DNA of 64,000 nucleotides from a virus, in IMG/VR virus record IMGVR_UViG_3300045988_158059, positions 1-64,000 of that record; one strand, given 5' to 3'. The translations under genes and the position numbers were made by a program. Shown one piece after another: positions 3,056 through 53,102 of this stretch (positions are counted from its first letter, which is position 1; each line of letters begins with the position of its first letter). The notes beneath the pieces were generated by a model. That model was given only the letters and a program-made list of their open reading frames with translations. It was not told the DNA's origin and did not search any database.

Positions 3056-4523
3056 CTTTGTTTCCTCCGTTTAATCTTTCTCTAATGTCTTCAAATGTTT
3101 CTTTATTGCAAGCTTTCCCATCTACAAATACGGTACTTAACGCTCCGTCACGAAATACATCATTATACCCGTCTTCACACTGTAATTCTCCATTGTCATC
3201 GTAATATATACAACAACACCCTTTATGAGATTTTTTCAAATGACTCGTATCGGTTTTTGGATCTTTATAGATCATAATTGGCTCGCCATTGACAATTCCA
3301 TAGGTGGCTTTCATAGCAATACCAAACATATCTCTGGTTACAACAACCATATGTCCATCGGGTTCTATAACTGCTGAGAAGCAAAATGCTCCGACTCCGA
3401 ATACGATATTGTTTGCAGCAAATCCTTTTTTCTTCAGTTTTTCCCATACCTGCTTTACATTATTAAGAGTACATCCGTCCCCATAAATAATTCCAATGTG
3501 CGGATCAAGCACTTTATATCCCTTGCTATTTACTGTTCCGCCGAATGTATTCCAAAGCTTTTCAATTGTCTCTACAGCAATTTCTACCATATCTCCGGAA
3601 TCTGGACGAACCAGAAGTTTACCATTATGCTGCATGATTTCTTTTTTACAAGCCGGAAGAATATTATCAATCATATTCCAGTAATCATAAGTGTCAGATA
3701 CCATACTGAAAGATGCATTAGGATATAGTTCCGTAAGTAGTCTTTTTACAAATGTGATTTCATCACCGTCTACTGCATAATTTGAAGCCATAACTGAATG
3801 TTCTGTTGATACAGCACCAATTCCGATTCTTTTAGTCCAACAGCAAGCATCATAATACGTATCTATATAATCAATGGCCGGAATTGTACTTGTCTTATCA
3901 AATGATAATAACCAAGCAGATGAACATCTTACTGCCTCTTCCATACAAGACATTCCTCTCATACCAAAGTCTGAGCAGGCCATTTCAGGTCTTAAAAAGT
4001 CATCACAGGTCATTTTATAGTAGTCGTTTGCAAGTTCTCTATACATATGACCAATTGTTGCATGAGCACATGGTTTCCAGAGTTCAACCTGCAGGATACA
4101 TTCTATCCACTGTACTACCCAAGCAAAATCTGGATGTGTGTTTGTAATTTCGATGCATGGGATGCCCATTGGTACTAATGTTCCCTCCGGAATAGCACGT
4201 ATCTGAATTGGAAGATAACCTAATTTATGAAGTTTCATAATAGGCTCTAGGTCATAACTATTTCCTAACTGTATATCAATACTGTATTTATATGTATGCT
4301 CAACTTCTACTGCTGTTAATTCAAAAAAGTTTTTATTAAAATAATCAATCAGATATTCTTCAATAAATGCCTGTAGACCAAAGAATACCATTTTGTTCTG
4401 ATTCTTAAGCATTGATCGTCGTGGAGTCCAGTAGGAAACAAGTTTTGTTAATCCTTTTGGATAGATTTTATTATGAATTTGTTTATATGTATCTGAAAGT
4501 AAAATTGCTAAAGTATTATTCAT
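3048..4523 (-). CDS. nadV: nicotinamide phosphoribosyltransferase family (NadV/NAMPT-like or Namat-like)
   Basis: N-terminal LLSDTYKQIHNKIYPKGLTKLVSYWTPR parallels the NAMPT block [29 protein letters not shown]. 491 aa, typical for the family. Confidence 0.8.
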   Translation of the reverse strand: MNNTLAILLSDTYKQIHNKIYPKGLTKLVSYWTPRRSMLKNQNKMVFFGLQAFIEEYLIDYFNKNFFELTAVEVEHTYKYSIDIQLGNSYDLEPIMKLHKLGYLPIQIRAIPEGTLVPMGIPCIEITNTHPDFAWVVQWIECILQVELWKPCAHATIGHMYRELANDYYKMTCDDFLRPEMACSDFGMRGMSCMEEAVRCSSAWLLSFDKTSTIPAIDYIDTYYDACCWTKRIGIGAVSTEHSVMASNYAVDGDEITFVKRLLTELYPNASFSMVSDTYDYWNMIDNILPACKKEIMQHNGKLLVRPDSGDMVEIAVETIEKLWNTFGGTVNSKGYKVLDPHIGIIYGDGCTLNNVKQVWEKLKKKGFAANNIVFGVGAFCFSAVIEPDGHMVVVTRDMFGIAMKATYGIVNGEPIMIYKDPKTDTSHLKKSHKGCCCIYYDDNGELQCEDGYNDVFRDGALSTVFVDGKACNKETFEDIRERLNGGNKDE

Positions 4524-5766: not shown

Positions 5767-6570
5767 TTATCTAAACCTCTCAACCAGTTCAATCTTAGGA
5801 CTTTCCAGATTTGTCAAGATCGTATCTGTCGTATAAATCTTCTCAATCAGTCCATTGTTTTTCAGAAGCTCTCCTTCATAAATAGTGTTTTCACAATGAG
5901 TTACATAAAGATAAATCTTACCTACACCGGCCTCTTTCAGCTTTTTAGCACTATAATAAAAAGTACCACCTTTGCTGCAGATATCATCTACAATCAGGAT
6001 GTCTTTACCTGGTAGCTGATCAATTTCACCTGATAAATCTAAGCCTTTAATCTCTCCGGTCTCCCAATCTCTATTCTTAATACCGAAAGCATATGGAAGA
6101 TGTACTGCTGAAGAATATCGCTTCATGGATCCCGCATCCGGATAAAACATCATAAGGTTATTACTCGCAATCTTCTTAACAGCATCCTCAATCATTCGAT
6201 TCGGGGATTCTACATGTACTTTATTAAATAATGCGGCAGATACATCAGAATGCGGATCTAAAACTTCTACTCTTCCAAAATGTAATGAATTAATAGTCTG
6301 AGCAAAATATTTTAAAGTAAATAATTCGTTCTCATGCTTGACTCGATCCATACGTGCATCTGGGATATAAGGCATATATAAATTAGGCACTACTCTATGA
6401 TCCCAACAATATCTAGTAATATATTCAACTGCTGTTAACTCTTCCATTGATTCAAAGAACCATTCAATATTATCTCTGCACCATCCTCCAATAGGAGGAA
6501 TATCCTTAAATAAGAATGTTCCATCCGGATATTTATCAAGTTTGATTTCTACGCCGTTTAATTTAATCAT
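5767..6570 (-). CDS. ribose-phosphate pyrophosphokinase-like (Prs/Adps family, type I PRTase fold)
   Basis: DILIVDDICSKGGT is the PRPP-binding loop. N-terminal domain as in Prs but shortened (267 aa). Confidence 0.7.
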   Translation of the reverse strand: MIKLNGVEIKLDKYPDGTFLFKDIPPIGGWCRDNIEWFFESMEELTAVEYITRYCWDHRVVPNLYMPYIPDARMDRVKHENELFTLKYFAQTINSLHFGRVEVLDPHSDVSAALFNKVHVESPNRMIEDAVKKIASNNLMMFYPDAGSMKRYSSAVHLPYAFGIKNRDWETGEIKGLDLSGEIDQLPGKDILIVDDICSKGGTFYYSAKKLKEAGVGKIYLYVTHCENTIYEGELLKNNGLIEKIYTTDTILTNLESPKIELVERFR

Positions 6571-7668
6571 TTAGTTCACCTCAAAATAAAAATATTTTAC
6601 TTCCCAATCGTCTTTAAATGTATCACGAACAGATAAAGCTATCTTTCCACATTCATTCATATGAGTCATAGCCAATGTCTTCCGACATGGGATTCCAGAG
6701 GTTTTTATGTCTGCTTGACATCTTTCATGTAATTCTTCCACATTTAACTTCCCATATCTTAAAGTATCCTGATGTGGATTTGGAACATTAGTTAAATCTT
6801 TTATGTCAGGATTAATTTCTTCCTTATTACATTCAGTTGGGAACGCACCGGCTCCATGCCGTGTCATATAGGTACGAGTCACATAACAGGCTTCTATATT
6901 GATTTCATCAGTCCAATTTACAGACTTTATAATTCTTGCAGGATTTTTAATACCAGTGTTGGATGGAGTAAGATGCGGATAATATTCAGTATTATTTTGA
7001 TCTAAAAGAAGCCCCTGCCCATTTTCAAATACTATGGTATCGTATCCATTAAGTAATTGATCATTACTTACAAAATGTACATGTGACATCATAAAATCAA
7101 GATCTTTATAGTAATGATCTCGAAGCCCAGGATTTTTTACGGGATGAAATAATTCTTCTTCCTGTTCAGATAATGTAATTCCCATATGTCTAAACATATC
7201 CATATAATATGACCATGACAATGAATATGAATTAATATGTTTTTTATAGCGTTGAATTGTATTATAAATCCCCATTCCACAGCTTCCGTGTTTATTGTTA
7301 CCACGACTTCGTTCAATAATTTGATTTGCCATCATATCAAAAGGATTTGTAATCATACATTTTTCATGAACATACACATGAGGTTCCCATCCTAATTTCT
7401 TTAACTCTTCCCATTCTTCCTTGAATACCAGAGGATTTAAAATAAAATCCTCCGGTAAATATGTATCTGCTCCATTTAATGTTCCAGAGCCGAAATGATG
7501 AAAGACATGCCGGGTTCCATCTGATTTTAATACTGTATGTCCTCTCTGAGCGCCGCCATTTGAACACACAACGATACAGTTATCTGCATTTTTAGTATAA
7601 TAATCTGTTAATTTACCCTTGCCCTCGTCACCAAAGTTTGCTCCGATGACAATTTTTATATCTTTCAT
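6571..7668 (-). CDS. adenylosuccinate synthetase family (PurA-like, possibly PurZ-like)
   Basis: GDEGKGK P-loop, GGAQRGHT (PurA GGHNAGHT), HGSCGMGI (PurA TTGRGIGP), FENGQGLLLD (PurA FEGAQGTLLD), GAGAFPTE. Only 365 aa; the C-terminal ~60 aa of bacterial PurA are absent. Confidence 0.8.
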   Translation of the reverse strand: MKDIKIVIGANFGDEGKGKLTDYYTKNADNCIVVCSNGGAQRGHTVLKSDGTRHVFHHFGSGTLNGADTYLPEDFILNPLVFKEEWEELKKLGWEPHVYVHEKCMITNPFDMMANQIIERSRGNNKHGSCGMGIYNTIQRYKKHINSYSLSWSYYMDMFRHMGITLSEQEEELFHPVKNPGLRDHYYKDLDFMMSHVHFVSNDQLLNGYDTIVFENGQGLLLDQNNTEYYPHLTPSNTGIKNPARIIKSVNWTDEINIEACYVTRTYMTRHGAGAFPTECNKEEINPDIKDLTNVPNPHQDTLRYGKLNVEELHERCQADIKTSGIPCRKTLAMTHMNECGKIALSVRDTFKDDWEVKYFYFEVN

Positions 7669-9223: not shown

Positions 9224-9778
9224 TTAATTTCTATTGATTACATTAATCTGGCAGCTTTCCATTACATCAAGAGCCGCTTTATGCTTTTCCGGTGTTGATC
9301 CTGCGCAGCATGATGCATCCACTGTGATTTTTGCCTCTGGATAATAAGTTTTAATCAAAAGAGCGTTCGTAATAACACAAATGTCTGTGCATACTCCAAT
9401 AATTTCAATATCTAATAAAGAAGAATCATATGCGATACCAAATGTTTCTTCCCAATCCCAGTCATCAAATCCAAAAGTAGATTTACAACATACCATAAAA
9501 CTATCGAGATTTTTATAATCAAGTTCATCAACAATTTCCCAACCTTTAGTACCATACATACAATGTTCAGGAAGTTTTCTGCCCTCTGAAGTATCTGCGT
9601 AATCTGAATGATGAGTATCCTTTGTAAGAATTACATAGTTCTTATTATTCTTATATTCATCAAATTTCTTTTTCACATTTGGTACAATAGCTTGTGCTTC
9701 CGGTGTTCCAAGAACTCCTGTCACAAAATCATTCTGCACATCAATTACAATCAGAACTTTCTTCTTCTCTTTTTCCAT
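9224..9778 (-). CDS. isochorismatase-family hydrolase (nicotinamidase PncA-like)
   Basis: VLIVIDVQNDF and IIGVCTDICV (catalytic Cys) are the isochorismatase/PncA signatures. Start placed at MEKEKKK (ATG 9776-9778), preceded by a GGGAG ribosome-binding site. Confidence 0.7.
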   Translation of the reverse strand: MEKEKKKVLIVIDVQNDFVTGVLGTPEAQAIVPNVKKKFDEYKNNKNYVILTKDTHHSDYADTSEGRKLPEHCMYGTKGWEIVDELDYKNLDSFMVCCKSTFGFDDWDWEETFGIAYDSSLLDIEIIGVCTDICVITNALLIKTYYPEAKITVDASCCAGSTPEKHKAALDVMESCQINVINRN

Positions 9779-10100
9779 TTTTATTCTCCCATTCTTTAAT
9801 TTGCTGTGCTCCATCTTCAACTTGCTGCTTATCATGTCTTGAATAATTATCTGCTGGACCATAAGCACCTTTATGTCGATATGAAGCATGTCCTTTACGA
9901 GTATTAGTTTTTACTGCAGTACCACCTCGACCAAGCAAACCATTATGACCTTTTGCTAATATACCAGATTTAAATTCAGGTTCATCAATCCATTCTCCAA
10001 GATATCTTCCGGAATATTTTTGGCCCTTAATTAATCTGCGTCTCTTTTTAATACTTTTTAACCTTTGTTCTCTCAAATATCCTCTTTTACGTTCCGGCAT
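9741..10100 (-). CDS. hypothetical basic protein
   Basis: Arg/Lys-rich 119 aa. GGAGG ribosome-binding site 7 nt upstream of the ATG. Confidence 0.4.
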   Translation of the reverse strand: MPERKRGYLREQRLKSIKKRRRLIKGQKYSGRYLGEWIDEPEFKSGILAKGHNGLLGRGGTAVKTNTRKGHASYRHKGAYGPADNYSRHDKQQVEDGAQQIKEWENKNGKREEESSDCN

Positions 10101-32073: not shown

Positions 32074-32994
32074 TTACTTTGCTCCAGTCGGACCGAGAAT
32101 AATCTCTCGTGCGTAATTCATCGAAATAACGGAACAGAATTTTCCAAAATATTGTCCTGCTGCTCGAACTACTTCCGGTTCTTCTTTTACACAATCTGTA
32201 TAAATTCTGTTTGGAAGATTCCTTGCAACAGTTTTCATATCCTGTTCACACCACTCTGTTGGGATGATTCCTTCATCACGCATTTTATATAACTCTTTTT
32301 CAACTCTACGCCGCGTCACGACAGATTTTACAAGTTCCTGTGCTTCTGTTCGTTCTTGCAACTTTTGCGGATCCTGAATCTTTTTAACATGATTCATTTT
32401 TGCAACTTCATGAAATTTATCTCCAACGATTTTCACTACAAATGGTAATCTGCTATTCGGATCGTTTAATCTTGTTTGGTTCTTTATAACAATACCTTCT
32501 TGAATTTCTCCATATCCCGGATGATCCATAAAACTTTGTACATGTTCCCAACTGACAAACGGTCCAACATAAAATGTATTGATATATGTAAGTCCATGCG
32601 TTTCTGCAAATGCCTTTACTTCTGACTGAGGAAGATATTTTTCTTCCCTTACATCATAAATATCAAATACGTACCATTTCTTAGTATTTTCTGGATAATA
32701 AATAATCGCATTTCTTGCTCCAGACCATTCTCCAAATATTACATAGTCCGGAACGTCTTTATAATCTTCAGGATTTAACTCCTGCACATAATTATAAAAA
32801 CCATTTAATGTATTGTTCTGATTCAACGTATGTCTTCTGGAAAAAGCTACCATTTTGCCAGTCTCTGCATCATATCTAGCTGCTGCATTAGATCCATCAA
32901 ATTTTTCCTGGATAACAATTAAGTCACCCGGTACAAATCCATCTGCATATCCTTCTTTCAGACGTTGAATATCCATAAATTTCTTCTGCTCCAT
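32074..32994 (-). CDS. ATP-dependent RNA ligase (covalent nucleotidyltransferase, KxDG)
   Basis: VIQEKFDGSNAAARYD is the KxDG(S/T) motif I of RNA/DNA ligases. Size and layout fit the Rnl-type ligases. Confidence 0.6.
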   Translation of the reverse strand: MEQKKFMDIQRLKEGYADGFVPGDLIVIQEKFDGSNAAARYDAETGKMVAFSRRHTLNQNNTLNGFYNYVQELNPEDYKDVPDYVIFGEWSGARNAIIYYPENTKKWYVFDIYDVREEKYLPQSEVKAFAETHGLTYINTFYVGPFVSWEHVQSFMDHPGYGEIQEGIVIKNQTRLNDPNSRLPFVVKIVGDKFHEVAKMNHVKKIQDPQKLQERTEAQELVKSVVTRRRVEKELYKMRDEGIIPTEWCEQDMKTVARNLPNRIYTDCVKEEPEVVRAAGQYFGKFCSVISMNYAREIILGPTGAK

Positions 32995-33578: not shown

Positions 33579-33648
33579 ATGACACAATTGGATTCGAACC
33601 AATATTTCAGCTTAAAAAGCCACGTTCTTTCCGTTAGACTATATGTCA
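33579..33648 (-). tRNA. tRNA-Lys(UUU) candidate (weak stems)
   Basis: Reverse complement reads TGACATATAGTCTAACGGAAAGAACGTGGCTTTTTAAGCTGAAATATTGGTTCGAATCCAATTGTGTCA. Acceptor TGACATA/TGTGTCA, perfect T-arm ATTGG-TTCGAAT-CCAAT, anticodon loop TTTTTAA. The D stem and anticodon stem are poor. Confidence 0.45.
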
Positions 33649-33717
33649 TCTTTTTTTTACATGCATGACCTGTCGTACTGCAGTCACAACAGGATTATGT
33701 GTACTTATTCTTTCTCC

Positions 33718-34044
33718 TTATCCATTATAATTTTCTCCATAGATTGCGATTTCTGGTTTGCCATTTTCATCTAATACGTAATATGGTGTAATGCCACCAA
33801 TGCCACCATAACGGTCTGAACCTTGTACTACATATACAATTTTAGTGGTTTTATAATATACAAAATATTGACTATATCGACTAAACCCATTACTTGATAC
33901 GATTTGTATTTCCTTAATTTCAATAAATTGACCGAATGATTGAACTTTTTCTCCATTGTCATTTATCTCTTTGTCACCACATCCAGTAAACGAAAATGCC
34001 AATCCCGATACAAGCAATCCAATTAATAGTTTCTTAATTTTCAT
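33718..34044 (-). CDS. putative lipoprotein
   Basis: Signal peptide with FTGCGDK lipobox. Confidence 0.5.
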   Translation of the reverse strand: MKIKKLLIGLLVSGLAFSFTGCGDKEINDNGEKVQSFGQFIEIKEIQIVSSNGFSRYSQYFVYYKTTKIVYVVQGSDRYGGIGGITPYYVLDENGKPEIAIYGENYNG

Positions 34045-34084
34045 TCTGTCACCTCTCGAATCTCACATTCCATCGAATCACTTA

Positions 34085-34282
34085 TTATCCTATTAAAAAC
34101 ATCCCAGTAATAAATAATGAGAGTAATATAAACATAAGAATAAAATCACCGATAGCCAAAACAAGTCTCTTTCTATCATCAAGAATATCGAGTCTTGAAA
34201 AAGACATACCAATTGTAAAAATTAATGATAATAGTATTCCTATCAATAATGATCCTATATAAGATTTCATATCTAACCTCAC
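34085..34282 (-). CDS. small two-TM membrane protein
   Basis: 65 aa, two hydrophobic helices. Confidence 0.4.
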   Translation of the reverse strand: MRLDMKSYIGSLLIGILLSLIFTIGMSFSRLDILDDRKRLVLAIGDFILMFILLSLFITGMFLIG

Positions 34283-35058
34283 ATTTCAACAATTCTGTAT
34301 AATTGTCTATTCAGGTAATGTCCAAGTAAATAATCATTATCAAGTCCAGTTCCGTGATAAAATTCTTCCGCAATTCCACCACCTATAGCACATAACGTAT
34401 CCATGTCACACTTTAACGAAAATACATTTCGCAAGAAACTTTCATAATCATCACTTTCCAGAAAACATCTTATTGCAACAGGTACACTTCCTTGACAAAT
34501 TTCATTCCACTGATATGTCTTTCTATAGTCTTCAATTTTATATTCAACACTATATTTGTAATCATCTTTTGGATAGTATTTCTTCACATATTCATAGATT
34601 TCTGCTTTTGTAACACCTGTTCTTGCCATATAAATACACATTGCCGTTGCAACCGCCCCTTTAATTCCTTCTGGATGATTATGTGTACACTCAGCAGACT
34701 TTGTAGCCCATTCGATAACTTCTTTTTCTGTATTAAAATGTTCTCCAATATAAGAACATCTCATTGCAGATCCATTACCGCAACTTCCATATGCAGTTTC
34801 ATCATCGTATCTTAACCACGTTTCAAAATTATTTCCATATCCTGCATTTGGATATTTTCTTCCCCATTCTCTATATGAATCTGAGAAAGATTTATTATTA
34901 ATAATTGCTAATTTAGCAGCAAGTGTCATTACAGTATCATCTGTAAAATAACATCTATCAGTAAATAACTTACAATTCTTCCAATCTAAATCAATTGGTC
35001 TACCAAATTCATATTGTGAACCTGCAATATCACCTAAGATTGCACCAACGATAGCCAT
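34279..35058 (-). CDS. ADP-ribosylglycohydrolase (ARH/DraG family)
   Basis: GAILGDIAGSQYEF, FTDDTVMT, GNGSAMR and THNHPEG match the ARH motifs (GDALG, TDDT, GNG(A/S)(L/A)MR, THxHP). Confidence 0.8.
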   Translation of the reverse strand: MAIVGAILGDIAGSQYEFGRPIDLDWKNCKLFTDRCYFTDDTVMTLAAKLAIINNKSFSDSYREWGRKYPNAGYGNNFETWLRYDDETAYGSCGNGSAMRCSYIGEHFNTEKEVIEWATKSAECTHNHPEGIKGAVATAMCIYMARTGVTKAEIYEYVKKYYPKDDYKYSVEYKIEDYRKTYQWNEICQGSVPVAIRCFLESDDYESFLRNVFSLKCDMDTLCAIGGGIAEEFYHGTGLDNDYLLGHYLNRQLYRIVEM

Positions 35059-35152
35059 AATTTAATCTCCTTTATTTTAAATTATTATTTTTACGGGATT
35101 ATTTATAAGAATTTTATATCTCTCCTTTCATTTTTCTTTTAATGGAAACTCT

Positions 35153-35226
35153 GGGACTCGAACCCAGGACCGACCGGTTATGAGCCGGTTGCTCTAACCA
35201 ACTGAGCTAAGTTTCCATGTAGTGGG
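35153..35226 (-). tRNA. tRNA-Met(CAU) (elongator Met, or Ile2 if lysidine-modified)
   Basis: Reverse complement GGAAACTTAGCTCAGTTGGTTAGAGCAACCGGCTCATAACCGGTCGGTCCTGGGTTCGAGTCCCAGAGTTTCCA. All four arms canonical; anticodon CAT. Confidence 0.85.
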
Positions 35227-35358
35227 CGTTATAATTACACCCACAATATAGAAATGTAACAATATCTGTAAAAAAACTTGCTTATGCAATCGTGTCAGTT
35301 ACACGAACAATCGTCATCACTCTCAAAAGCCCTCCCACATTATTTCTACCTCACTGAC

Positions 35359-35616
35359 TCAATTACTTTTTTGCTTCATAACTAATCTACACATCTGCTT
35401 AACCAGATCATCCTCCAACTTCCCACTTACAACCTCATTAGCACAAAGCACATCTATATAAATGTTTCCTTTCGACGTATCCAAACCATACAACCAATAC
35501 ATCTGCAGCTTCCTCATCACTGGGTTCCAGTATTCCACCAACTTTTCAATCTTCTTTAATGTCCTATAGACGCTATATAATATAAAGGTCAACCTCCCGG
35601 ACTTATTTCTCCTCAT
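35359..35616 (-). CDS. hypothetical protein
   Basis: 85 aa ORF between two tRNAs. Confidence 0.3.
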   Translation of the reverse strand: MRRNKSGRLTFILYSVYRTLKKIEKLVEYWNPVMRKLQMYWLYGLDTSKGNIYIDVLCANEVVSGKLEDDLVKQMCRLVMKQKSN

Positions 35617-35658
35617 TACTATTTAGGCCATCAAGTAAATCCGTAAGAATAGTCCGAA

Positions 35659-35738
35659 TACGGATAGTGGGATTCGAACCCACACGATTTCTCCGAAGGG
35701 TTTGAGCCTTCTACGTCTGCCAGTTCCGTCATATCCGC
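35659..35738 (-). tRNA. tRNA-Leu(CAA), type II (long variable arm)
   Basis: Reverse complement GCGGATATGACGGAACTGGCAGACGTAGAAGGCTCAAACCCTTCGGAGAAATCGTGTGGGTTCGAATCCCACTATCCGTA. 3-bp D stem, anticodon stem GAAGG/CCTTC with loop CTCAAAC, ~13 nt variable arm, T-arm GTGGG-TTCGAAT-CCCAC. Confidence 0.75.
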
Positions 35739-35905
35739 TTATTGTATAAGGTTACTACCGGCTTACCCTTATACAGTTTATTTATACTCGTAAGACCTGC
35801 TTCAAACGAGTTATAAGAGGTAAAAAGTAAAATGAAAGCCACATGCTTATAACCGAACTTCCACATATCTAAAGTTTTTATTCATCGGAATGTTTAATTA
35901 AATTT

Positions 35906-37024
35906 TTATACAGAAAGATTATAATGAAGTCCCTTTTCTTCTTTTCTTGCAAAAACGATACGATCAATTTTAATATTTTCGTATTTTTTCTTTTCTTCTT
36001 TTGTAAGATCCGCATAGTCTTCATCCGGAATAATTTCAACATCTTTTCCATCAACAAAATCAATGTGTCTGTCAAAATCATATCTTACATCAACACCAGA
36101 AAATTTTGTATAGAACCATTTTCCATCTATTGTAAAATATAAACTATGATTAGAAGTCTTATCAAACAAGTCAAGAGTTTTTTCTTCTGTATCTTTTTTA
36201 CCATCTTTAGTATACAAAGTAGCTATATAAACAGTATTATTTATATGAAGGATATTCATATCTTTAATTGCCTCTTGAAATTGTAATCCTGTATTAAGCT
36301 CAAATGCGATAGCTCTTAAACAATCATAATTTAAGCTGACTCTTTTAGAAAATGCAATTACCTTACTAATTTCTCCATAATACTCTTTATGTAACTTGTC
36401 TCTCATATATTCTGTGATTTCAGAATCTGTCGGATAATCAAATCTAAAATGATAATGAAATCTTCCAGGTCTATTTACCAAATAATCACTCAGAGTATTA
36501 AGATTATTACAAGTAATAACATATAACTTTTTCCCTTGAGCTAATCCATCAAATAATGTAAGCAGCTCTGTTTGTGGATTAGCCATACCATCAGCAGCTT
36601 TAATATTACCAAATGTTTTATCAAACTCATCAAACATTACTAATACTTCCTGTTCAATTTCTTCAATAAAATTAGCAATTCCAGGGATATATGTATCAAC
36701 AATAATTACTGGTAATCCTTTTTTTACAGCTTCTACAGCAAGAATCTTAGAAAATAAAGATTTGCCAATTCCTTTGGCTCCAGATAAGATCACGCCAAGA
36801 TTTTTATTGAAATTTGGAAAAGCATTTAATACTTTATTTACTTTTTCCATGTGCACACCGTATATTTTATCTTCATTGATCTCAATATCAGCATGTTTCT
36901 CTAAATAAAATCCTGTCATCTGTGAACATCTGATAGAATAAATTTGTGCCGGAAGTTGATTATGTGTTACAAGATCATCTCCGTAGATTCTAAAAGTGGA
37001 ACCTGTACTAATAATTTTACTCAT
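35906..37024 (-). CDS. AAA+ ATPase
   Basis: ILSGAKGIGKS Walker A, VLVMFDEFDK Walker B, VNRPGRF sensor 2 / Arg finger. Confidence 0.65.
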   Translation of the reverse strand: MSKIISTGSTFRIYGDDLVTHNQLPAQIYSIRCSQMTGFYLEKHADIEINEDKIYGVHMEKVNKVLNAFPNFNKNLGVILSGAKGIGKSLFSKILAVEAVKKGLPVIIVDTYIPGIANFIEEIEQEVLVMFDEFDKTFGNIKAADGMANPQTELLTLFDGLAQGKKLYVITCNNLNTLSDYLVNRPGRFHYHFRFDYPTDSEITEYMRDKLHKEYYGEISKVIAFSKRVSLNYDCLRAIAFELNTGLQFQEAIKDMNILHINNTVYIATLYTKDGKKDTEEKTLDLFDKTSNHSLYFTIDGKWFYTKFSGVDVRYDFDRHIDFVDGKDVEIIPDEDYADLTKEEKKKYENIKIDRIVFARKEEKGLHYNLSV

Positions 37025-37103
37025 TTTTATCTCCTTTTTGTATAATTAAATTATATTTCTCTGCAATTCGGCTGGAGTATATTTGTATAAAATACTTGCC
37101 AAA

Positions 37104-37188
37104 CGGCGGTAGTGGGATTCGAACCCACACGAGCTACTGCTCAATAGAGTCAAAGTCTATTATGTCTAGCCAATTTCATCATACCGCT
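37104..37188 (-). tRNA. atypical tRNA with long variable arm and apparent UUG anticodon
   Basis: Reverse complement AGCGGTATGATGAAATTGGCTAGACATAATAGACTTTGACTCTATTGAGCAGTAGCTCGTGTGGGTTCGAATCCCACTACCGCCG. A1:C72 mismatch, 3-bp D stem, anticodon stem ATAGA/TCTAT with loop CTTTGAC, ~15 nt variable stem-loop GAGC-AGTA-GCTC, perfect T-arm. Confidence 0.55.
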
Positions 37189-37285
37189 ACATTCATTGTT
37201 TGTATAATTAAATTTCTTTCTTCTTTTTATTTAGCACAGGGAGCTTTCACTCCTCTGTGCTGTTGTCATCCTTGACTATGTATTT

Positions 37286-37314
37286 AGTATAGCATATCAA
37301 GTTTCGTTTGTCAA
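37286..37314 (-). promoter_or_regulatory. sigma70-type promoter (TTGACA-17 nt-TATACT) upstream of the atypical tRNA
   Basis: Minus strand reads TTGACAaacgaaacttgatatgcTATACT, a consensus -35, a 17-nt spacer and a near-consensus -10. About 95 nt upstream of the tRNA 5' end, followed by an imperfect hairpin. Confidence 0.5.
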
Positions 37315-39313: not shown

Positions 39314-40162
39314 CTATTGATTCAGTTCGTTACGCTGAACTGTTGATTTCCGTATAGGATATTTTATATTTGGATTATGCCAACTGCCACCATTATTAAT
39401 TCTATAAATCTGAGTAACAGCTCGACCATATAATTTAGCAATATACTTCATAGGAATGCTAGGATCTTCTAACAATTTAATAATTTCTTCTAATTCATCA
39501 TGAGTTAATCCTAATTCTCTGATAGGATATTCATCGTTTTCATCATAATATGTAACACCTTTATTAATGTTTAAAATTACATATCTTTCTACTTTAAACA
39601 TTCTAGCAATATAGTCTATACTATAAAAGCCATCTCGTAACATTTTTTTGATTAATTTAATTTTTTCATGATTTATAGATGGACATATTAAAGGTTCTCT
39701 GATAGGATAAGTGATATCATTTTTTCTCCAAGCTATTCCGGTATTAACATTTCGAATAGTTTTTATTGATACATTATACTTTTCGGCAAGCTTATCAAAT
39801 TCAACGTTCGTTTCTTTTAAATCTTTCATCAATAAATCAACCTGCTGTTGTGTTAACTTACTTTGCGGATTATTTTCTCCAGAACTATCTTGCCCACCAT
39901 TTTGAATATTATATCCGAACTCTTTCTCATTACTGCGATATAATTTAATATATTCCTTTTCTTTTGTATTATAATCTTCTCCGAAATATAATGTTTCTAC
40001 CGAAAAATTTTCCCATCCATATTTATGTATTGCATTATAGATAGGATGATTCATGCGTTTATCATGCCGATGCTCTTTAATACGTCTTTCTAAATTATTA
40101 GTTTGTCCTATATAAATCTTATGATTTATGTTATTCTCTATTTTGTATACATATTTCTCCAA
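39314..40162 (-). CDS. GIY-YIG homing endonuclease
   Basis: KYVYKIENNINHKIYIGQTNNLERRIKEH is the GIY-(10)-YIG...R...E/H motif, followed by C-terminal DNA-binding repeats. TTG start with an AGGAGAA ribosome-binding site. Confidence 0.85.
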   Translation of the reverse strand: MEKYVYKIENNINHKIYIGQTNNLERRIKEHRHDKRMNHPIYNAIHKYGWENFSVETLYFGEDYNTKEKEYIKLYRSNEKEFGYNIQNGGQDSSGENNPQSKLTQQQVDLLMKDLKETNVEFDKLAEKYNVSIKTIRNVNTGIAWRKNDITYPIREPLICPSINHEKIKLIKKMLRDGFYSIDYIARMFKVERYVILNINKGVTYYDENDEYPIRELGLTHDELEEIIKLLEDPSIPMKYIAKLYGRAVTQIYRINNGGSWHNPNIKYPIRKSTVQRNELNQ

Positions 40163-47322: not shown

Positions 47323-47408
47323 TGTTCATGCCTTTCTGATTGAGTTAATCTAATTCGTTTTGATAGATCAACTATATCACTGTTATTTGCATTTGTCAAT
47401 AGTAAAAG

Positions 47409-49409
47409 TTAATTTAATTTGTTTTTGTATTCTTCTTCACTGATAATAGGAATGTTCAACTCAGAAGCTTTCTTATTTTTACTAGATCCACTGTTTTTAT
47501 CATTGGTAATTAGATAATCAGTTGCCTTTGTAACTCCGGACACAACTTTCCCTCCTTTTGATTCTATATCCGCCACAAGTTCATCCCGGTTAGCAAAAAT
47601 ATGTAACTTCCCAGTGATACAGAATTTCTTTCCGGACAATGAATCGCTTTCAGAAGATATTTTATCATTATTAAGTTTCGAAAATATGAACTGTTCTGCC
47701 AAAGCAATAACGTAATCATAATTTTCCTTAAAATATCTATGGATAGAAATATTTCGCTCCGTCCCTAATCCTTCAATACAGGTAAAATTAAAATCAGAAG
47801 CAGCATCTTTAATAAATGTTTCAAATGGATAGAGCATTCCTAATTCCCTGGTTCTTATTTCTTCATATCTAGCAATATCCTTTGCAGCTCTACCACCAAT
47901 TAACGGAATATTTAATCCTACAATAAATTTTTCTATGGTAGTATTCCTGCTAAACTCAATAGAATCTAAAATATTCGCAATTTTCTTTGCTCCCATTCTA
48001 GGTAATCTGGACAATTCTGTAGAATGATCCTTCAAATAATACAGATCAATTGGTGATGTCACAAGCCCAGTATCAATCAATAGCTGCAATGTAGCCTCAG
48101 ATAATCCATTAATATCATGGGCCTTTTTTCCTACAAAAGCATTTAATTCACCCAGAAGCTTGCCTTTGCATCCAGCATTCATGCACATCAATACTTCAGA
48201 ATCGTTCTCTTTTACGACAGACACTGGTTCTCCACAGATTGGACATATTTTAGGAATTATAAACTTTTCACCGGTATTATAACCTCTTGTTATGTTTTGA
48301 GAAATCTGCGGAATGATCTGGTTTGCCTTATACACAGATACGGTATCATCTTTATGAAGATAAAATCCTTTGAATATACTCACATTGTGTAGGCTCGCTC
48401 TACTTACAGATGTTCCGTCAATATCAACCGGTTCAAAGACTGCTGTAGGCGTTAATTGTCCAGATTTACCCATAGTCCATTCAATATCAGTCAAAACTGT
48501 CTCAAATTCATCATCATAGAACTTGTATGCCAGAGAATGACGTGGATACTTATCTGTGACTCCAAGTGATAATCCATAAGCGATATCATTATATGCAGCA
48601 ACAAGCCCATCAATTGGATAAGATAAGTATGCTGCCTTTTCCTTTAACAGATTAATAAGCTCTTCAAGATTCTGATTTTCTTTATATACACGAATATAGG
48701 GTACAATATCAAATCCAAGTTCTCTTGCTTTTTCAAATCTTGCTGACATTAAAGGTAGCTCGTCCATACCGGCAGGTACCTTCCATACTATAAAACGAAC
48801 ATGACGTTTGGCTGCTACCTTACTATCTAGCTGTCTGACTGATCCTGAAGCAAGATTTCGCGGGTTCTTATATCTATCTTCTTCATGTTTAATTAAATTA
48901 TTAATTTTCTCAAAATCTGTATATGTAATAATAGCTTCTCCTTCGATTTCAACGTGGCCTTTCTGATTAATATGCATAGGAATATTTTCGAACGCCTTTG
49001 CATTGTGAGTAATAATTTCTCCTGTAACGCCGTTTCCGCGAGTTTCAGCCTGGATCAGCTCGCAATCTTCATACGTCAAAAGAATTGTCAATCCATCCAT
49101 CTTACACATTAGCAAAGCATCTTTATCACCAATAAATTTTCGAAGTATATTCACATCTTTAGTTTTATCAAGAGACATCATTAAATGTGAATGCTCAGTT
49201 TTCTCTAATTTACTTTTTACTTCATATCCGACGCTATGGACTGGAGAATTACTTAAAATAACTCCTGTTTCTTTTTCCATTTTTTCCAACTGATCACACA
49301 GATCATCATACTGATGATCCGTAACAATACTCTCTGCATTATTATAATAAGCATCTCGGTACTGATTAAGTTTTTCAACCAATGCTTTCATTTCTTCAAT
49401 CTTGTTCAT
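47409..49409 (-). CDS. ligA: NAD+-dependent DNA ligase
   Basis: KMDGLTI is the KxDG adenylation motif. Also a CPICGEP...C..AGCKG Zn finger, an HhH region and a C-terminal BRCT-like KKFCITGKL. Confidence 0.85.
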   Translation of the reverse strand: MNKIEEMKALVEKLNQYRDAYYNNAESIVTDHQYDDLCDQLEKMEKETGVILSNSPVHSVGYEVKSKLEKTEHSHLMMSLDKTKDVNILRKFIGDKDALLMCKMDGLTILLTYEDCELIQAETRGNGVTGEIITHNAKAFENIPMHINQKGHVEIEGEAIITYTDFEKINNLIKHEEDRYKNPRNLASGSVRQLDSKVAAKRHVRFIVWKVPAGMDELPLMSARFEKARELGFDIVPYIRVYKENQNLEELINLLKEKAAYLSYPIDGLVAAYNDIAYGLSLGVTDKYPRHSLAYKFYDDEFETVLTDIEWTMGKSGQLTPTAVFEPVDIDGTSVSRASLHNVSIFKGFYLHKDDTVSVYKANQIIPQISQNITRGYNTGEKFIIPKICPICGEPVSVVKENDSEVLMCMNAGCKGKLLGELNAFVGKKAHDINGLSEATLQLLIDTGLVTSPIDLYYLKDHSTELSRLPRMGAKKIANILDSIEFSRNTTIEKFIVGLNIPLIGGRAAKDIARYEEIRTRELGMLYPFETFIKDAASDFNFTCIEGLGTERNISIHRYFKENYDYVIALAEQFIFSKLNNDKISSESDSLSGKKFCITGKLHIFANRDELVADIESKGGKVVSGVTKATDYLITNDKNSGSSKNKKASELNIPIISEEEYKNKLN

Positions 49410-49842: not shown

Positions 49843-50754
49843 CTATATTAAATAGTCACCATATTTTTTAAGAAAATACGCAGGTCTTTTAATTTTTATT
49901 CCATACTGGTGTTCAATCATAGACCGAGTTTCAATATCATATAAAATCTTGTTTTTATTTAAATTATATTTTCGGATTAATTCATTTGCCATATTGATTT
50001 GGCCGGAGATATTGATTTTTTCAGCAGTCATATATGATACATCTATGGACTTCAACGCTGCTGCTAATGAATTATACATTTGTCTCCCAAGACAATGCGG
50101 ATCATCTTTTACAATATGAGATCTTTTTATAATGGTTCCATCGTCCATAAGTTTGGATTTAGTTCCATATGGATATGTTAATTCCATTGTCATATTGCTC
50201 TTTTGTGCAGTTAAAATTAATGCTTCACTTACATTTACAACTCTTCCGGAATACAATTTCATTGTATGATTTTCTACGTCAATATCATCAAGTTTTGCTC
50301 TAATCGTGTCTTCAAAATCTTTAGACTTGCCATATTCAAAAATGCTCAGAATCATGAATCGATCTCTAGGATTCTTTAATGCTTCGATCCATGTTAAAAT
50401 CGTATCTCTTGATACAATCTGATGATTTAACAATGTCTTATTTAATAGTGCTGCCAGCATATCAGGTGTGATAGTTGCATAGATATTTTGTCCATTTAAC
50501 ACTAAATTCTCATTAACACACCAGTCCGTATATTGTGTAAGAGTATTATTTACTACAATAATGGACTCTAATGTTGTAAATTTGAACAACTTATACATTT
50601 CTGTAATCTCATTTAAATTAAAGTCACATAAATCCTTTTGATACATATGTTCAAACGGCGCAACTCTCTTAAATCTAGGTACAAGAGGAGTAACGCTTGC
50701 AACAGTTTTTAACTTAAATTCGTAAAACCTTTGTTTTCTATCTTCGTTATACAT
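49843..50754 (-). CDS. tyrosine-recombinase-like protein (degenerate?)
   Basis: PRDRFMILSIFEYGKSKDFEDTIRAKLDDID resembles recombinase box I (RDRALLELLY.TGLR.SEL..L...DID). HCLGRQMYNSLAAALKS resembles box II (HxLRHTFAT). The terminal catalytic Tyr context is unclear. Confidence 0.35.
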   Translation of the reverse strand: MYNEDRKQRFYEFKLKTVASVTPLVPRFKRVAPFEHMYQKDLCDFNLNEITEMYKLFKFTTLESIIVVNNTLTQYTDWCVNENLVLNGQNIYATITPDMLAALLNKTLLNHQIVSRDTILTWIEALKNPRDRFMILSIFEYGKSKDFEDTIRAKLDDIDVENHTMKLYSGRVVNVSEALILTAQKSNMTMELTYPYGTKSKLMDDGTIIKRSHIVKDDPHCLGRQMYNSLAAALKSIDVSYMTAEKINISGQINMANELIRKYNLNKNKILYDIETRSMIEHQYGIKIKRPAYFLKKYGDYLI

Positions 50755-52035
50755 TTATATTCTCTCCTCTAAAAAAGGAATTAATCTTTTCCTTATCTTA
50801 TTAAAGTTTCTCGAAAAATCATATATTATTTTTTCCTCACGTTCCGCATCATAAATAAGAAAACGCTTATAGTTCTCTATCATTGATATTTTATTTTTTC
50901 CATCATAATAATGAAATAAAATCGTAAGAATTATAATTTCTTTCTTTGAATATTCTTTTTCAAGATACTTATCATCTTCTTCTGTAAGCATATTCAGATC
51001 TTCGATAAATTCCTTTGATACTCTAATGATTTCTTTTCGTTGCTCAGGAGAATCACTTTGCCTTTTACTGAAATATAATCTCTTAATACATTCTGCCAGA
51101 GTTGTTGAATCAATAAGCCCGCCTATTTTTATTTCCCCTTGCAAATTACACATACTGCTTTCATTAATACGCTGGACCACTTTATTCTGAGCTGCATATG
51201 AGTTATATGTGTCGCTTAACTGTTTGCTCATTTTAGTTTTCTGGTCATACTGATATATCATACGGCGAGATTTATCAATGTCAAAGTTTGTAATTCTCAG
51301 CTCCATTGGATAGTTAAAATTTGGATTTTTACTTCTGGCCTGGAACATTGATACATATCTATGATATCCATCGTTTATATCAAACGCCTCTAAAGAATGA
51401 ATAATAAGCTGACGTGATTGCTCATCATAATGAAAATCTGCGTATACATCATCTTTCGGGATATTCAAAGTGATTGTATCCGGAACATAAATATGTTCAA
51501 GCATATCTGCCGTAATTTCTTTTACTGCACTCTTATTCAATGTAATACGATATAGCTCATTATTATCTCGTGTTACTTTAGTCATAGCACGTTGTGTGAC
51601 AGGATTATAGTTAATTAATCCTGATTCTTGCAGAGCGCAAAATGTATCTACATTTAAAGATCCTATCCATTGATCATCGCTTACCTGAATCATATTGAAC
51701 ACCAACGGGAATTCAATTTTATTTGGTTCTTCGTATTGCATCCCACTATATTTACTTATTTCTCTGTCTGTAAAAAAGTCAGATAACTTTTTGCGATAAT
51801 CTTTCTTAGTGGCATTTAATATACTATCTGCAATTACAAAAAGTGTATAATCATTTGCTTCTTCAATACTCTTTCTACTAGATAAAAAATCTGAAAAAAT
51901 GCCTTTGGGATAATTATATTTCTCATATGCATAATTGTAAATTTCTAGCTCGTCACTCTTATTAATTAAGATATTAAAAAACTTTTTGGATAAATAATCT
52001 TCTAAAATACTTCTATCGACATTCATTTTTCTCAC
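50755..52035 (-). CDS. hypothetical protein with DndB/DGQHR-like motifs
   Basis: NPVTQRA and DGYHRY resemble the QR and DGQHR motifs of DndB/DpdB-like proteins. Weak. Confidence 0.3.
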   Translation of the reverse strand: MRKMNVDRSILEDYLSKKFFNILINKSDELEIYNYAYEKYNYPKGIFSDFLSSRKSIEEANDYTLFVIADSILNATKKDYRKKLSDFFTDREISKYSGMQYEEPNKIEFPLVFNMIQVSDDQWIGSLNVDTFCALQESGLINYNPVTQRAMTKVTRDNNELYRITLNKSAVKEITADMLEHIYVPDTITLNIPKDDVYADFHYDEQSRQLIIHSLEAFDINDGYHRYVSMFQARSKNPNFNYPMELRITNFDIDKSRRMIYQYDQKTKMSKQLSDTYNSYAAQNKVVQRINESSMCNLQGEIKIGGLIDSTTLAECIKRLYFSKRQSDSPEQRKEIIRVSKEFIEDLNMLTEEDDKYLEKEYSKKEIIILTILFHYYDGKNKISMIENYKRFLIYDAEREEKIIYDFSRNFNKIRKRLIPFLEERI

Positions 52036-52073
52036 CTCTTTCCTCAGATTATATCACGCAAAGTTAATTTTGT

Positions 52074-53102
52074 CTATATTTTTGATGATAAATTTTTCGA
52101 CATGAACTCCGTTGCTTCCTTTCTTGAGTTATTTTCTTCAACTGTATAAATACTGGTTGTCTGTATATCTGCATGCCCTACGGCATTTTTCGTAGCAACG
52201 ATATCTTTTGTTTCCTTATAATATAATGAAGCAAAAGCAGCTCTTAACTTATGCGGAGACACATGTTTACCAATTCCTTTCTCGGCATATTTGACTACCA
52301 TACAATAGATTGTTTGTGGATCCATACGTTTTCCATTTTTTGATATAAAAAGAGCATCCTCTTTAATCCCCATATTATATAGTATTTTATCTCGATCAAG
52401 GATCCAATCTCTTAATACACGTATGGAATCATCATTTAATTGATATACCTGTTCTTTATCTCGCTTGTCGATAATAGTCAAATTGTGAGTCTCAAAATTT
52501 AAATCACTTAAGTTAATTTCGCTTAATGCAGTTTTTCTCATGCCGGTAACCATAAATAAATATAATATAGCATAATCTCTTGAATGCCATTCTTTTGGCA
52601 TGTAAGAATATTTTACGGCGCCCAATATTCCATTTAAATCATCCATTGATAAAAACACTCTTTTAATCGAGTCTTTTCTAATAGGCCGATTTACATTGTC
52701 CATCGGATTCCTTTCAATATCTCCTCTCCGATACAAAAAATCAAAAAACCTATTTAATGTGCAACATACCAATTTAGTATATGCCACAGACGACTTTTTA
52801 ATTTCACCATTACCATCTTTTACGTATTTAATATGCTCCAGATACCTTGCGATATCATCTGCGTCAATTTCGCTTATATCTTCTACATCTATATAATCTA
52901 AGAAATGATGAAGTTTTCTAACGTAATTTAAACAAGTATTCGGGCTGCGAACAGCCTGAATACTCATATAAAAATCACTCACGCATTGTGGCATATCATT
53001 AAGAATTTTCTTAACATTCTTATTTAATTTTAATTCATGCTCCAACCTTCCATTCATAACTTCATTCTCCTCTCTAACATAATTCCAGCTTGTTGATACC
53101 AT
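52074..53102 (-). CDS. tyrosine recombinase / integrase (XerD family)
   Basis: C-terminal HKLRAAFASLYY....VGHADIQTTSIYTV matches box II with the catalytic Tyr. N-terminal SAM-like core-binding domain. Confidence 0.85.
   Translation of the reverse strand: MVSTSWNYVREENEVMNGRLEHELKLNKNVKKILNDMPQCVSDFYMSIQAVRSPNTCLNYVRKLHHFLDYIDVEDISEIDADDIARYLEHIKYVKDGNGEIKKSSVAYTKLVCCTLNRFFDFLYRRGDIERNPMDNVNRPIRKDSIKRVFLSMDDLNGILGAVKYSYMPKEWHSRDYAILYLFMVTGMRKTALSEINLSDLNFETHNLTIIDKRDKEQVYQLNDDSIRVLRDWILDRDKILYNMGIKEDALFISKNGKRMDPQTIYCMVVKYAEKGIGKHVSPHKLRAAFASLYYKETKDIVATKNAVGHADIQTTSIYTVEENNSRKEATEFMSKNLSSKI

Follow-up and report, generated by a model that had tools for sequence, protein, structure and literature searches.

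Four tRNA genes at the locus

We examined a 64,000-nucleotide (nt) stretch of a phage contig, positions 1 to 64,000 of IMG/VR record IMGVR_UViG_3300045988_158059. We refer to this whole stretch as the window, and all coordinates are window positions unless another contig is named (handles such as L016). The element in question is an 85-nt tRNA gene with the anticodon UUG and a long variable arm. We searched for tRNAs with ARAGORN and with the Rfam covariance model RF00005 (gathering score, 29). Four tRNA genes were found by both tools, all on the minus strand and each above 29 bits, where an earlier note on this DNA had placed them. These genes and the trailer of the UUG tRNA are as follows.

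37104..37188, minus strand: tRNA(UUG), 85 nt, class II with a long variable arm; A1xC72, G73, and A15/U48; no encoded CCA; 49.1 bits with RF00005, also called by ARAGORN
37053..37103, minus strand: 51-nt 3' trailer that accompanies the long-arm tRNA; also behind the divergent copy in contig L039; missing from the canonical-tRNA allele described below
35659..35738, minus strand: tRNA-Leu(CAA); A73 and an 11-nt variable region; 50.7 bits, also called by ARAGORN
35143..35216, minus strand: tRNA with anticodon CAU; G1:C72; 73.6 bits, also called by ARAGORN
33579..33648, minus strand: tRNA-Lys(UUU)-like gene, irregular, 70 nt; 43.2 bits, also called by ARAGORN

Both tools read the UUG tRNA in the same register, with the 7-nt anticodon loop CUUUGAC and the anticodon UUG. 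It has a 7-bp acceptor stem with an A1xC72 mismatch, the discriminator G73, a 3-bp D stem, and a 10-nt D loop. The 15-nt variable region (U-GAGC-AGUA-GCUC-GU) forms a 4-bp stem, GAGC/GCUC, with the 4-nt loop AGUA. A variable region of at least 10 nt folded as a stem-loop, together with a 3-bp D stem, marks a class II tRNA, and we found both. To our knowledge, the textbook bacterial class II tRNAs are those for Leu, Ser, Tyr, and Sec only. The length, loop, D stem, variable region, and A1:C72 mismatch agree with what the earlier note had described. The note called this architecture atypical, and the case is stronger than stated, since the body is Leu-like (see below). Its T arm is identical to that of tRNA-Leu(CAA) over 21 nt (GTGTGGGTTCGAATCCCACTA). 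The note had also given all four tRNAs one T-arm type, which does not hold for the CAU tRNA, whose T loop is GGTTCGAGTCC and not GAATCC. The 51-nt trailer was predicted to fold into a weak hairpin (-8.4 kcal/mol; z = -1.6).

The earlier note had considered that this might be a mis-folded Ser/Leu-like tRNA, in which another loop register would give a Ser or Leu anticodon. With both ARAGORN and RF00005, the register stayed UUG. This agreement between two independent tools, together with covariation across the 15 family members described next, refutes that idea. ARAGORN's call of 87 nt also hinted at an 8-bp acceptor stem, as in Sec tRNAs or allo-tRNAs. We rejected this because the 87 nt reflect an added flanking pair (U.G), the same flanking pair was added to the Lys and CAU tRNAs, and the covariation is that of a 7-bp acceptor stem and a 5-bp T stem (7/5).

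More than 20 contigs from different samples carry the 85-nt sequence without a single change. These copies are too similar for a test of structure, so we collected a divergent family through a pattern that the window tRNA shares with the divergent L039 copy. The pattern retrieved 26 viral and 30 metagenome stretches, which yielded 15 distinct sequences. Across these 15 sequences, 98.6% of the pair cells in the cloverleaf and extra arm are standard pairs, and 17 of the 24 pairs show double-sided changes, including three of the four variable-stem pairs. Compensatory changes were found in all five helices. The covariation score was 0.618, compared with 0.186 in shuffles, and none of 500 shuffles reached 0.618. 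When the 3' partners were slid as a control, pairing fell to 41 to 54%. All 12 pairs of the 7/5 acceptor/T arrangement covary. The nucleotides expected of a translation-competent tRNA (U8, A14, G18G19, R15:Y48, U33, a purine at 37, T54-Psi55-C56, A58, and the 7/5 stems) are present in the UUG tRNA and are invariant or covarying in the 15 family members. Several members also encode CCA.

These data bear on the idea that the gene is a decaying pseudogene or a software artifact, namely, a duplicated tRNA-Leu whose anticodon drifted to UUG. Decay of this kind would fit the T arm shared with the neighboring tRNA-Leu, the A1xC72 mismatch, and a 1-nt deletion in the T loop of the L024 relative. It fits poorly with an unchanged sequence in so many contigs from different samples, with compensatory changes in every helix, with an invariant G73, and with an anticodon arm that matches phage tRNA-Gln and not tRNA-Leu. 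Its scores are also high for a decayed gene, at 49 bits with the Rfam model and 97 bits with the model of the family. We consider decay or artifact highly improbable. We concluded that the UUG tRNA is a real structured tRNA and not a pseudogene.

Exchange with a canonical tRNA-Gln and identity marks

The UUG tRNA is part of a cassette that is exchanged between related phages. The cassette is framed by two copies of a phage motif and is followed by an ATPase gene.

37200..37214, minus strand: phage motif AATTTAATTATACAA, copy 1, left cassette border; its TTTAATTATACA core ends 12 nt before the 5' end of the UUG tRNA
37038..37052, minus strand: phage motif, copy 2, right cassette border, 26 nt before the ATPase start codon
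35906..37024, minus strand: AAA-type ATPase gene, between the UUG tRNA and tRNA-Leu (PF00004; phrog_2376, 2e-112)

The related contig L016 matches the window exactly from the promoter, spacer included, through to the start codon of the ATPase gene, except in the segment 37053-37193. There the window has the long-arm tRNA and its 51-nt trailer, and L016 has a canonical 73-nt tRNA-Gln(UUG). The swapped cassette is 141 nt long and is bordered by the two copies of AATTTAATTATACAA as direct repeats. Among close relatives, 16 have the long form and 7 have the canonical form; in the 10 contigs whose ATPase protein is identical, these numbers are 7 and 3. A second slot is occupied by the long form in L039 and by canonical tRNA-Gln in L040 and L041. 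This suggests that the long-arm and canonical cassettes are interchangeable in the phage population. Two arrays, of 21 tRNAs (L128) and 32 tRNAs (L236), have no Gln tRNA other than the long-arm type, and Leu, Ser, and Tyr tRNAs are present in them separately.

Three relatives have lost the gene (L096:3400-3720, L097:4210-4530, and L102:1930-2250, corresponding to window positions 35659-37188). In each, the 5' part of the UUG tRNA is joined to the 3' acceptor strand of tRNA-Leu(CAA), with the junction at the identical 21-nt T arms. The ATPase gene is gone, and the hybrid is no longer called by ARAGORN. These deletions formed by recombination between the identical T arms.

We compared the identity marks of the family with those of the tRNAs called in the same phage arrays.

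UUG long-arm family: G73 in 15/15; 1:72 is A:U or U:A in 14/15 and A.C in the window type
Canonical Gln tRNAs: discriminator A or G; 1:72 is U:A or A:U in 9/9
Leu tRNAs: A73 in 63/64; 1:72 mostly G:C or G.U
Ser tRNAs: G73 in 21/29 and U73 in 6; G1:C72 in 25/29; A3:U70 in 20/29

By this comparison, the acceptor end and anticodon arm of the UUG family are Gln-like. The family has the tRNA-Gln anticodon YUG (U35 and G36) as well as a weak 1:72 pair with G73, and the 1:72/G73 marks differ from those of Leu, Ser, and Tyr tRNAs. Two tRNA-Leu marks are lacking, since position 73 is G and not A and the anticodon is UUG and not NAG or YAA. As for tRNA-Ser, whose marks are G1:C72, G2:C71, G73, and a long arm (typically at least 16 nt, with a stem of 5 to 7 bp), G73 and G2 are present, but no family member has G:C at 1:72, and the median variable-region length is 12 nt, compared with 19 nt in Ser tRNAs. 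In terms of the Escherichia coli glutaminyl-tRNA synthetase (GlnRS) set of G2:C71, G3:C70, and G10, which may not fit the host, G2 is present (as G:C or G.U), 3:70 is mostly C:G, and position 10 is A, G, or U. The L039 copy has an acceptor stem (UGGGGUG/CACCCUA) and an anticodon arm close to those of the canonical tRNA-Gln at that slot in L040 and L041.

The core of the UUG tRNA is Leu-like (D arm, A14, A15:U48, G18G19, and T arm), and the median variable-region length of the family is near the 13 nt of Leu and Tyr tRNAs. With the family covariance model, members scored 90 to 101 bits and the window copy scored 97. The next 34 matches were 31 tRNA-Leu and 3 other long-arm Gln tRNAs, and none was Ser or Tyr. 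The same model found no copy of the scaffold with another anticodon in 0.95 Mb of phage loci; these loci had been picked through UUG patterns, which biases this test.

Set beside canonical tRNA-Gln(UUG), a class I tRNA with U1:A72 and G73, the UUG tRNA has the same CUUUGAC loop, the same G73, and a weak first pair, and it shares its slot, promoter, and flanks with the canonical allele of sibling phages. It differs in its 15-nt variable arm instead of 4 to 5 nt, in A1xC72 instead of U1:A72, and in the absence of G10, and its D and T arms are Leu-like and not of the canonical GCCAAGCGGUAAGGC type. With tRNA-Leu (class II) it shares the D arm GRYGRAAWUGG.UAGAC, A15:U48, the arm length, and the T arm. 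It departs from tRNA-Leu in having G73 instead of A73, an A/U or mismatched 1:72 instead of G:C or G.U, and UUG within a Gln-type anticodon arm.

The simplest reading is that of an ordinary Gln decoder with an unusual body, because of the Gln acceptor-end marks, the canonical tRNA-Gln at the same slot, and the two arrays in which it is the sole Gln tRNA. With a probability of roughly 0.7, we propose that the UUG tRNA is a working tRNA-Gln that reads CAA on a class II body derived from tRNA-Leu. It would probably also read CAG. If so, a conserved, covarying 7/5 class II tRNA with Gln marks would be a natural case of a tRNA identity transferred to another body.

GlnRS, like other class I synthetases, approaches the tRNA via the acceptor minor groove and the D-arm side, and the variable region stays exposed. 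With the side of the variable arm free of GlnRS, a class II body could still take glutamine. Previous work demonstrated that an amber tRNA-Ser, which is class II, becomes a glutamine acceptor after two acceptor-stem base-pair substitutions, and so established that pairs 1-72 and 3-70, along with U35, are elements of Gln identity (PMC9976931). The logic is the same: a class II body with U35 and a Gln-type acceptor end, in that case charged by GlnRS. In contrast, the engineered tRNA is a laboratory suppressor with the anticodon CUA in E. coli, whereas the UUG tRNA is a natural sense-codon tRNA of Firmicutes phages, known here from its sequence. GlnRS was found in 10 of 28 Firmicutes surveyed and must be functional in Clostridioides difficile and Clostridium perfringens, both of which lack gatCAB (PMC3927822).

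Several points weigh against this reading. The amino acid is deduced from sequence marks. The E. coli GlnRS element G10 varies among family members (the window copy has A10), and 3:70 is C:G and not G:C. If the host uses a nondiscriminating glutamyl-tRNA synthetase (GluRS) with GatCAB, the D-arm determinants of GluRS are absent, and the A1xC72 mismatch of the window copy does not provide the U1:A72 pair that the amidotransferase reads. Part of the invariance of the CUUUGAC loop among family members stems from the search patterns. With 36% of the Gln codons in the window, CAA is outnumbered by CAG (64%), so codon supply is a poor reason for carrying a UUG tRNA gene. The deletion variants indicate that the gene is dispensable at least sometimes. 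Finally, the long arm and G73 are also serine marks (PMC5389517).

The last point raises the alternative of a missense decoder. The UUG tRNA would be a substrate of seryl-tRNA synthetase (SerRS), through its long arm and G73, or of leucyl-tRNA synthetase (LeuRS), through its Leu-like core, and would insert Ser or Leu at CAA, either as mistranslation on purpose or as an attack on translation in the host. SerRS recognizes its tRNAs mainly by a long variable arm and G73, from which Ser identity was predicted for allo-tRNAs whose anticodons are foreign to Ser (PMC5389517); G2 is also present, and the core elements A14, A15:U48, G18G19, and the D arm are Leu-like. For serine, however, 1:72 is A/U or mismatched where 25/29 phage Ser tRNAs have G1:C72, A3:U70 is absent, and the arm is of Leu/Tyr length. 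For leucine, an invariant G73 stands against A73 in 63/64 phage Leu tRNAs. Neither charging would explain why a canonical tRNA-Gln occupies the same slot or why the gene fills the Gln place in otherwise near-complete arrays. The open reading frames (ORFs) and stop usage of the window also follow the standard code: stops are TAA 56, TGA 17, and TAG 11, and ORFs are long under code 11. We regard a missense role as unlikely. Stop usage, ORF lengths, and the UUG anticodon likewise led us to reject stop-codon recoding with a suppressor tRNA.

The allo-tRNAs themselves resemble the UUG tRNA in having a long variable arm, G73 or U73, and an anticodon foreign to the class II amino acids (PMC5389517). 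They occur in Clostridia and other bacteria, and related 8/4 tRNAs occur in phages (Mukai et al. 2017, PMC5389517). They have 8/4 or 9/3 stems and a long D stem with a tetraloop, like that of tRNA-Sec, whereas the UUG tRNA has 7/5 stems, a 3-bp D stem, and a 10-nt D loop and is not of the allo type.

A different alternative is a non-decoding tRNA-like RNA that acts as a decoy or sponge for a nuclease that targets tRNA-Gln or as a regulator of a synthetase or another tRNA-binding protein. Phage tRNAs can serve as decoys or supplements against tRNA-cleaving defenses (PMC13096335), and neighboring slots hold irregular tRNA-like genes with short anticodon stems. The loss of the gene in the deletion variants would also agree with such a function. 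Against it stand the elements of translation, which are kept here under covariation (the 7/5 stems, U8, A14, G18G19, U33, A37, the T loop, and the 7-nt anticodon loop), the CCA that several family members encode, and the place of this tRNA type as the sole Gln tRNA in two large arrays. We think it improbable that the UUG tRNA does not decode. The earlier note had offered a decoding oddity or a regulatory tRNA-like RNA as explanations; given the Gln acceptor-end marks, the same-slot swap, and the two arrays, neither is needed.

Transcription signals and a possible escape from tRNA cleavage

Signals of two types lie upstream of the UUG tRNA and recur in the window.

37286..37314, minus strand: host-type (sigma-70/SigA-like) promoter, TTGACA, 17-nt spacer, TG-extended TATACT; 11/12 + TG, the best site in 30-42 kb
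37233..37261, minus strand: leader hairpin between the promoter and the phage motif; leader fold of -22.3 kcal/mol, z = -5.6, equaled by 0/200 shuffles
54990-54962, 52076-52048, 47399-47371, and 18508-18480, minus strand: further host-type promoters from the site scan, 11/12 + TG with a 17-nt spacer
55016, 49438, 48897, 46694, 44594, 37212, 37050, 35902, 33127, and 14158, minus strand: phage motif sites from the pattern scan

The earlier note had recognized the TTGACA-17-TATACT promoter, and we confirmed it and found it to be TG extended. Its hexamers are invariant in more than 14 relatives, and the spacer and upstream bases vary. Conserved hexamers in a variable background are as expected of a used promoter. 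It is not the sole promoter of its kind, as had been supposed: the window has five sites of 11/12 + TG quality, all on the coding strand, compared with 0.4 +/- 0.6 in simulated sequence. At least the sites at 47399 and 18508 fall neatly within intergenic gaps. Nor does the host-type promoter stand in place of the phage motif at the UUG tRNA, as the note had it. Because a copy of the motif ends 12 nt upstream, the gene has both host-type and phage signals. The motif, AAAAATTTAATTA[TA]ACA (scan pattern TTTAATTA[ATC]A[CA]A), occurs at 10 window sites, on the coding strand only, and lies 26 to 29 nt before a start codon at 5 of them. It is probably a phage middle or late promoter.

The host-type promoter makes early transcription of the UUG tRNA by host RNA polymerase plausible. 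In relatives, changes in the leader hairpin are confined to its bulge or loop. We rejected this hairpin as an intrinsic terminator because a U tract is absent on both strands. We also rejected an operator formed by an 8-nt inverted repeat flanking the promoter (TATGTATT/AATACATA), as its left arm is not conserved in relatives.

We propose the following course of events for a tRNA-Gln on a tRNA-Leu body. Host RNA polymerase would transcribe the gene early from the TTGACA-17-TGnTATACT promoter, and a second transcription would probably start from the phage motif 12 nt upstream of the tRNA. RNase P and 3' nuclease trimming would process the transcript, and CCA would then be added by the host. The charging enzyme would read the Gln-type parts, which are the CUUUGAC loop (U35 and G36), G73, and a 1:72 pair that is weak or open; the D, T, and long variable arms are Leu-type. 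Glutamine charging would be followed by use on the ribosome. In the phage population, the 141-nt cassette alternates with the canonical tRNA-Gln(UUG) cassette. The sequences show the gene with its structure and covariation, the identity marks, the allelic swap, and the conservation of the promoter; we infer the glutamine charging, the timing of expression, and the reason for the odd body.

That reason is the weakest step. We loosely hold that the odd body allows escape from a nuclease that recognizes the normal tRNA-Gln body. According to this model, which we offer tentatively and consider possible rather than probable, the gene arose through a natural cross-class identity switch. A tRNA-Leu scaffold would have acquired Gln tags in the form of G73, a 1:72 pair that has opened, and the anticodon arm of a tRNA-Gln. 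It would be kept as one of two cassettes since a nuclease of the host or of a rival phage recognizes the ordinary tRNA-Gln body; the long-arm copy would go uncleaved and would remain a substrate of the class I Gln enzyme. The occurrence of two alleles on identical backgrounds, the endonuclease-rich neighborhood, the genes for an RNA ligase and Tpt1 (see below), and the precedent of the phage T5 tRNA-Tyr fit an arms race over tRNA integrity without proving it.

In that precedent, defenses cleave tRNA-Tyr in its variable loop, and the T5 tRNA-Tyr resists (retron-Eco7) through a different loop (PMC10264068; PMC13096335). Other resistant phage tRNAs are variants in the anticodon loop (PMC10264068; PMC13096335). 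Phage tRNAs are also known to get around tRNA-cleaving defenses by being expressed rapidly and early (PMC13096335). The UUG tRNA is like these defense-resistant phage tRNAs (PMC10264068; PMC13096335) in that the phage copy has an altered region (a distinct variable loop in T5 tRNA-Tyr), in its predicted early expression, and in the GIY-YIG endonuclease near the cluster. They differ in that the known cases involve few loop substitutions, whereas the UUG tRNA would be a whole-body swap across classes, with no defense system or cleavage linked to it. The two-allele polymorphism at one slot offers a ready-made comparison of what the extra arm confers, whether defense resistance, charging, or modification.

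Long arms are not confined to this family. A more permissive pattern, open to every UUG tRNA whose variable region is long, matched more than 118 stretches in IMG/VR. Among the matches listed, ARAGORN called 45 tRNA(UUG) of at least 80 nt, with 32 distinct sequences, and most long-arm UUG tRNAs were of a second type, in which a hairpin is inserted in the variable region of an ordinary tRNA-Gln body. A similar, slightly stricter pattern matched 25 stretches in 185,579 species genomes, and 15 of these were long-arm UUG tRNAs. Eight such cases were examined; six lie in tRNA arrays, and five are accompanied by ROOL, skipping-rope, RAGATH-27, or an internal transfer-messenger RNA (tmRNA). The two arrays that we checked (L221 and L227) are flanked by phage-family genes. 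The phage-associated RNAs and phage-family flanks link the long-arm UUG trait to phages. For the same reasons, we rejected a native host tRNA in the isolate genomes concerned (Dysosmobacter, Hominicoprocola, and D16-76), where arrays with ROOL, skipping-rope, or an internal tmRNA and phage-family flanks are prophage-like. Long-arm tRNA-Gln is common among phage sequences of the human gut and rumen, and cellular genomes almost never carry it except in prophage-like arrays. We found no description of a long-arm tRNA-Gln in the open-access full-text literature.

In phage arrays, the isotypes with long arms also include Asn, His, Pro, Trp, Thr, Val, Met, Ile(UAU), and Glu. The UUG tRNA is part of this tendency, linked to phages, for long arms to be placed on tRNAs that usually have none. 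If the escape model were true, the long arms on Gln, Asn, His, Pro, Trp, Thr, and other phage tRNAs would represent a general counterdefense tactic. Arrays with such arms include L106, L119, L128, L131, L143, L168, L175, L182, L184, L195, and others, with five in L119 alone, and L214 has a long-arm Gln(CUG). RAGATH-27 lies beside the L039-type copy in Ruminococcus sp. AM36-2AA (L205:4245-4330). The RNAs beside long-arm tRNA-Gln at L227:5044-5608, L208:4333-4415, and L221:2185-2613 are ROOL, skipping-rope, and tmRNA embedded in the tRNA array.

The other tRNAs and the phage genome

The CAU tRNA is not an initiator because it has G1:C72. Its best matches in E. coli are genes annotated as tRNA-Ile with the anticodon CAT. 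By these matches it is probably a lysidine-modified tRNA-Ile2 that reads AUA, rather than the elongator Met tRNA implied by the label Met(CAU) in the earlier note. AUA makes up 18% of the Ile codons. For annotators, the cluster is a warning that anticodon-based names ("Gln" or "Met") and the expected architecture can conflict in phage tRNAs.

The fourth slot, at about 33579-33648, is polymorphic. The features of this slot and its surroundings are as follows.

L016:6382-6452, L019:6079-6153, L264:5129-5205, and L039:7994-8068: polymorphic fourth slot in near-identical phages
32074..32994, minus strand: RNA ligase gene, about 600 nt downstream of the Lys tRNA (PF09414, 2e-26; phrog_548, 6e-61)
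39314..40162, minus strand: GIY-YIG + HTH homing endonuclease gene, 2.1 kb upstream of the tRNA cluster (phrog_7168)

Whether the Lys-like tRNA decodes is uncertain, and the suggestion that it replaces a tRNA-Lys cleaved by a PrrC-type defense stays speculative for that reason. Its anticodon stem is 4 bp with two G.U pairs, and the U run is one base shorter in L033 and L237 (4 instead of 5); both count against replacement. Alternative folds have a 5-bp stem with a 5- or 3-nt loop, and the fold with the 3-nt loop is more stable. The gene recurs in at least six related contigs (L018/L203, L262, L267, L268, and L269), once with a U-to-C change that strengthens the stem. Elsewhere, the slot holds "Cys" genes (ACA or GCA, with a 3-bp anticodon stem) or tRNA-like genes with an 8-nt loop (tgtg or catg), all with irregular anticodon arms. 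The RNA ligase, possibly an RNA repair enzyme, and a Tpt1 RNA 2'-phosphotransferase gene about 31 kb away in the window loosely favor the replacement idea.

We found no thermodynamic structure signal in the 442-nt spacer between tRNA-Leu and the CAU tRNA or in the 167-nt leader of tRNA-Leu (z = -0.13 and -0.54, respectively) and no Rfam match in them at E <= 1. The spacer (35217-35658, minus strand) is relatively G rich, its length is kept in relatives, and it contains an 85-amino-acid ORF (35359-35616) with no Pfam match.

The neighborhood of the tRNA genes is mosaic, mobile, and rich in homing endonucleases. Upstream of the cluster, contigs with an identical ATPase differ, some having TerD/vWA/HNH genes and others having GIY-YIG/OmpA genes. 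In L265 (positions 195-2766, compared with window positions 47409-49409), an HNH/NUMOD4 endonuclease splits the NAD-dependent DNA ligase into a 383-amino-acid adenylation/OB part and a 290-amino-acid BRCT part; the window gene is intact (666 amino acids).

All called genes of the window are on the minus strand. They include genes for a DNA polymerase III alpha subunit, a RecD-like helicase, an anaerobic ribonucleotide reductase, the NAD-dependent DNA ligase, tyrosine recombinases, and homing endonucleases. By polymerase, the nearest isolated phages are C. difficile phages (45% identity), followed by large Bacillus phages. Close relatives are contigs of 100 to 250 kb from human gut metagenomes, and a more distant relative of the L039 type lies within a 499-kb scaffold of Ruminococcus sp. 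AM36-2AA. The nearest phages, the gut relatives, and the Ruminococcus scaffold point to an anaerobic gut Firmicute as the host.

The window has a set of NAD/ADP-ribose genes at 2027-2566, 3048-4523, 5767-6570, 9224-9889, and 34279-35058, all on the minus strand. The set comprises Tpt1/KptA RNA 2'-phosphotransferase, NAMPT-like phosphoribosyltransferase, PRPP-synthetase-like, isochorismatase/nicotinamidase-like, and ADP-ribosylglycohydrolase genes. These may serve NAD salvage against NAD-depleting defenses and, with the RNA ligase at 32074-32994, RNA repair. A short adenylosuccinate-synthetase-like gene (365 amino acids) lies at 6571-7668 on the minus strand (PF00709, 1.4e-38); PurZ, which acts in the synthesis of 2-aminoadenine (Z) DNA, is a homologue of adenylosuccinate synthetase. 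At 49843-53102, minus strand, the gene for a DndB-like protein (50755-52035) has a tyrosine recombinase gene (52074-53102) on one side and, on the other, the gene for a protein whose core-binding domain is MrpR-like (49843-50754); strong host-type promoters are nearby.

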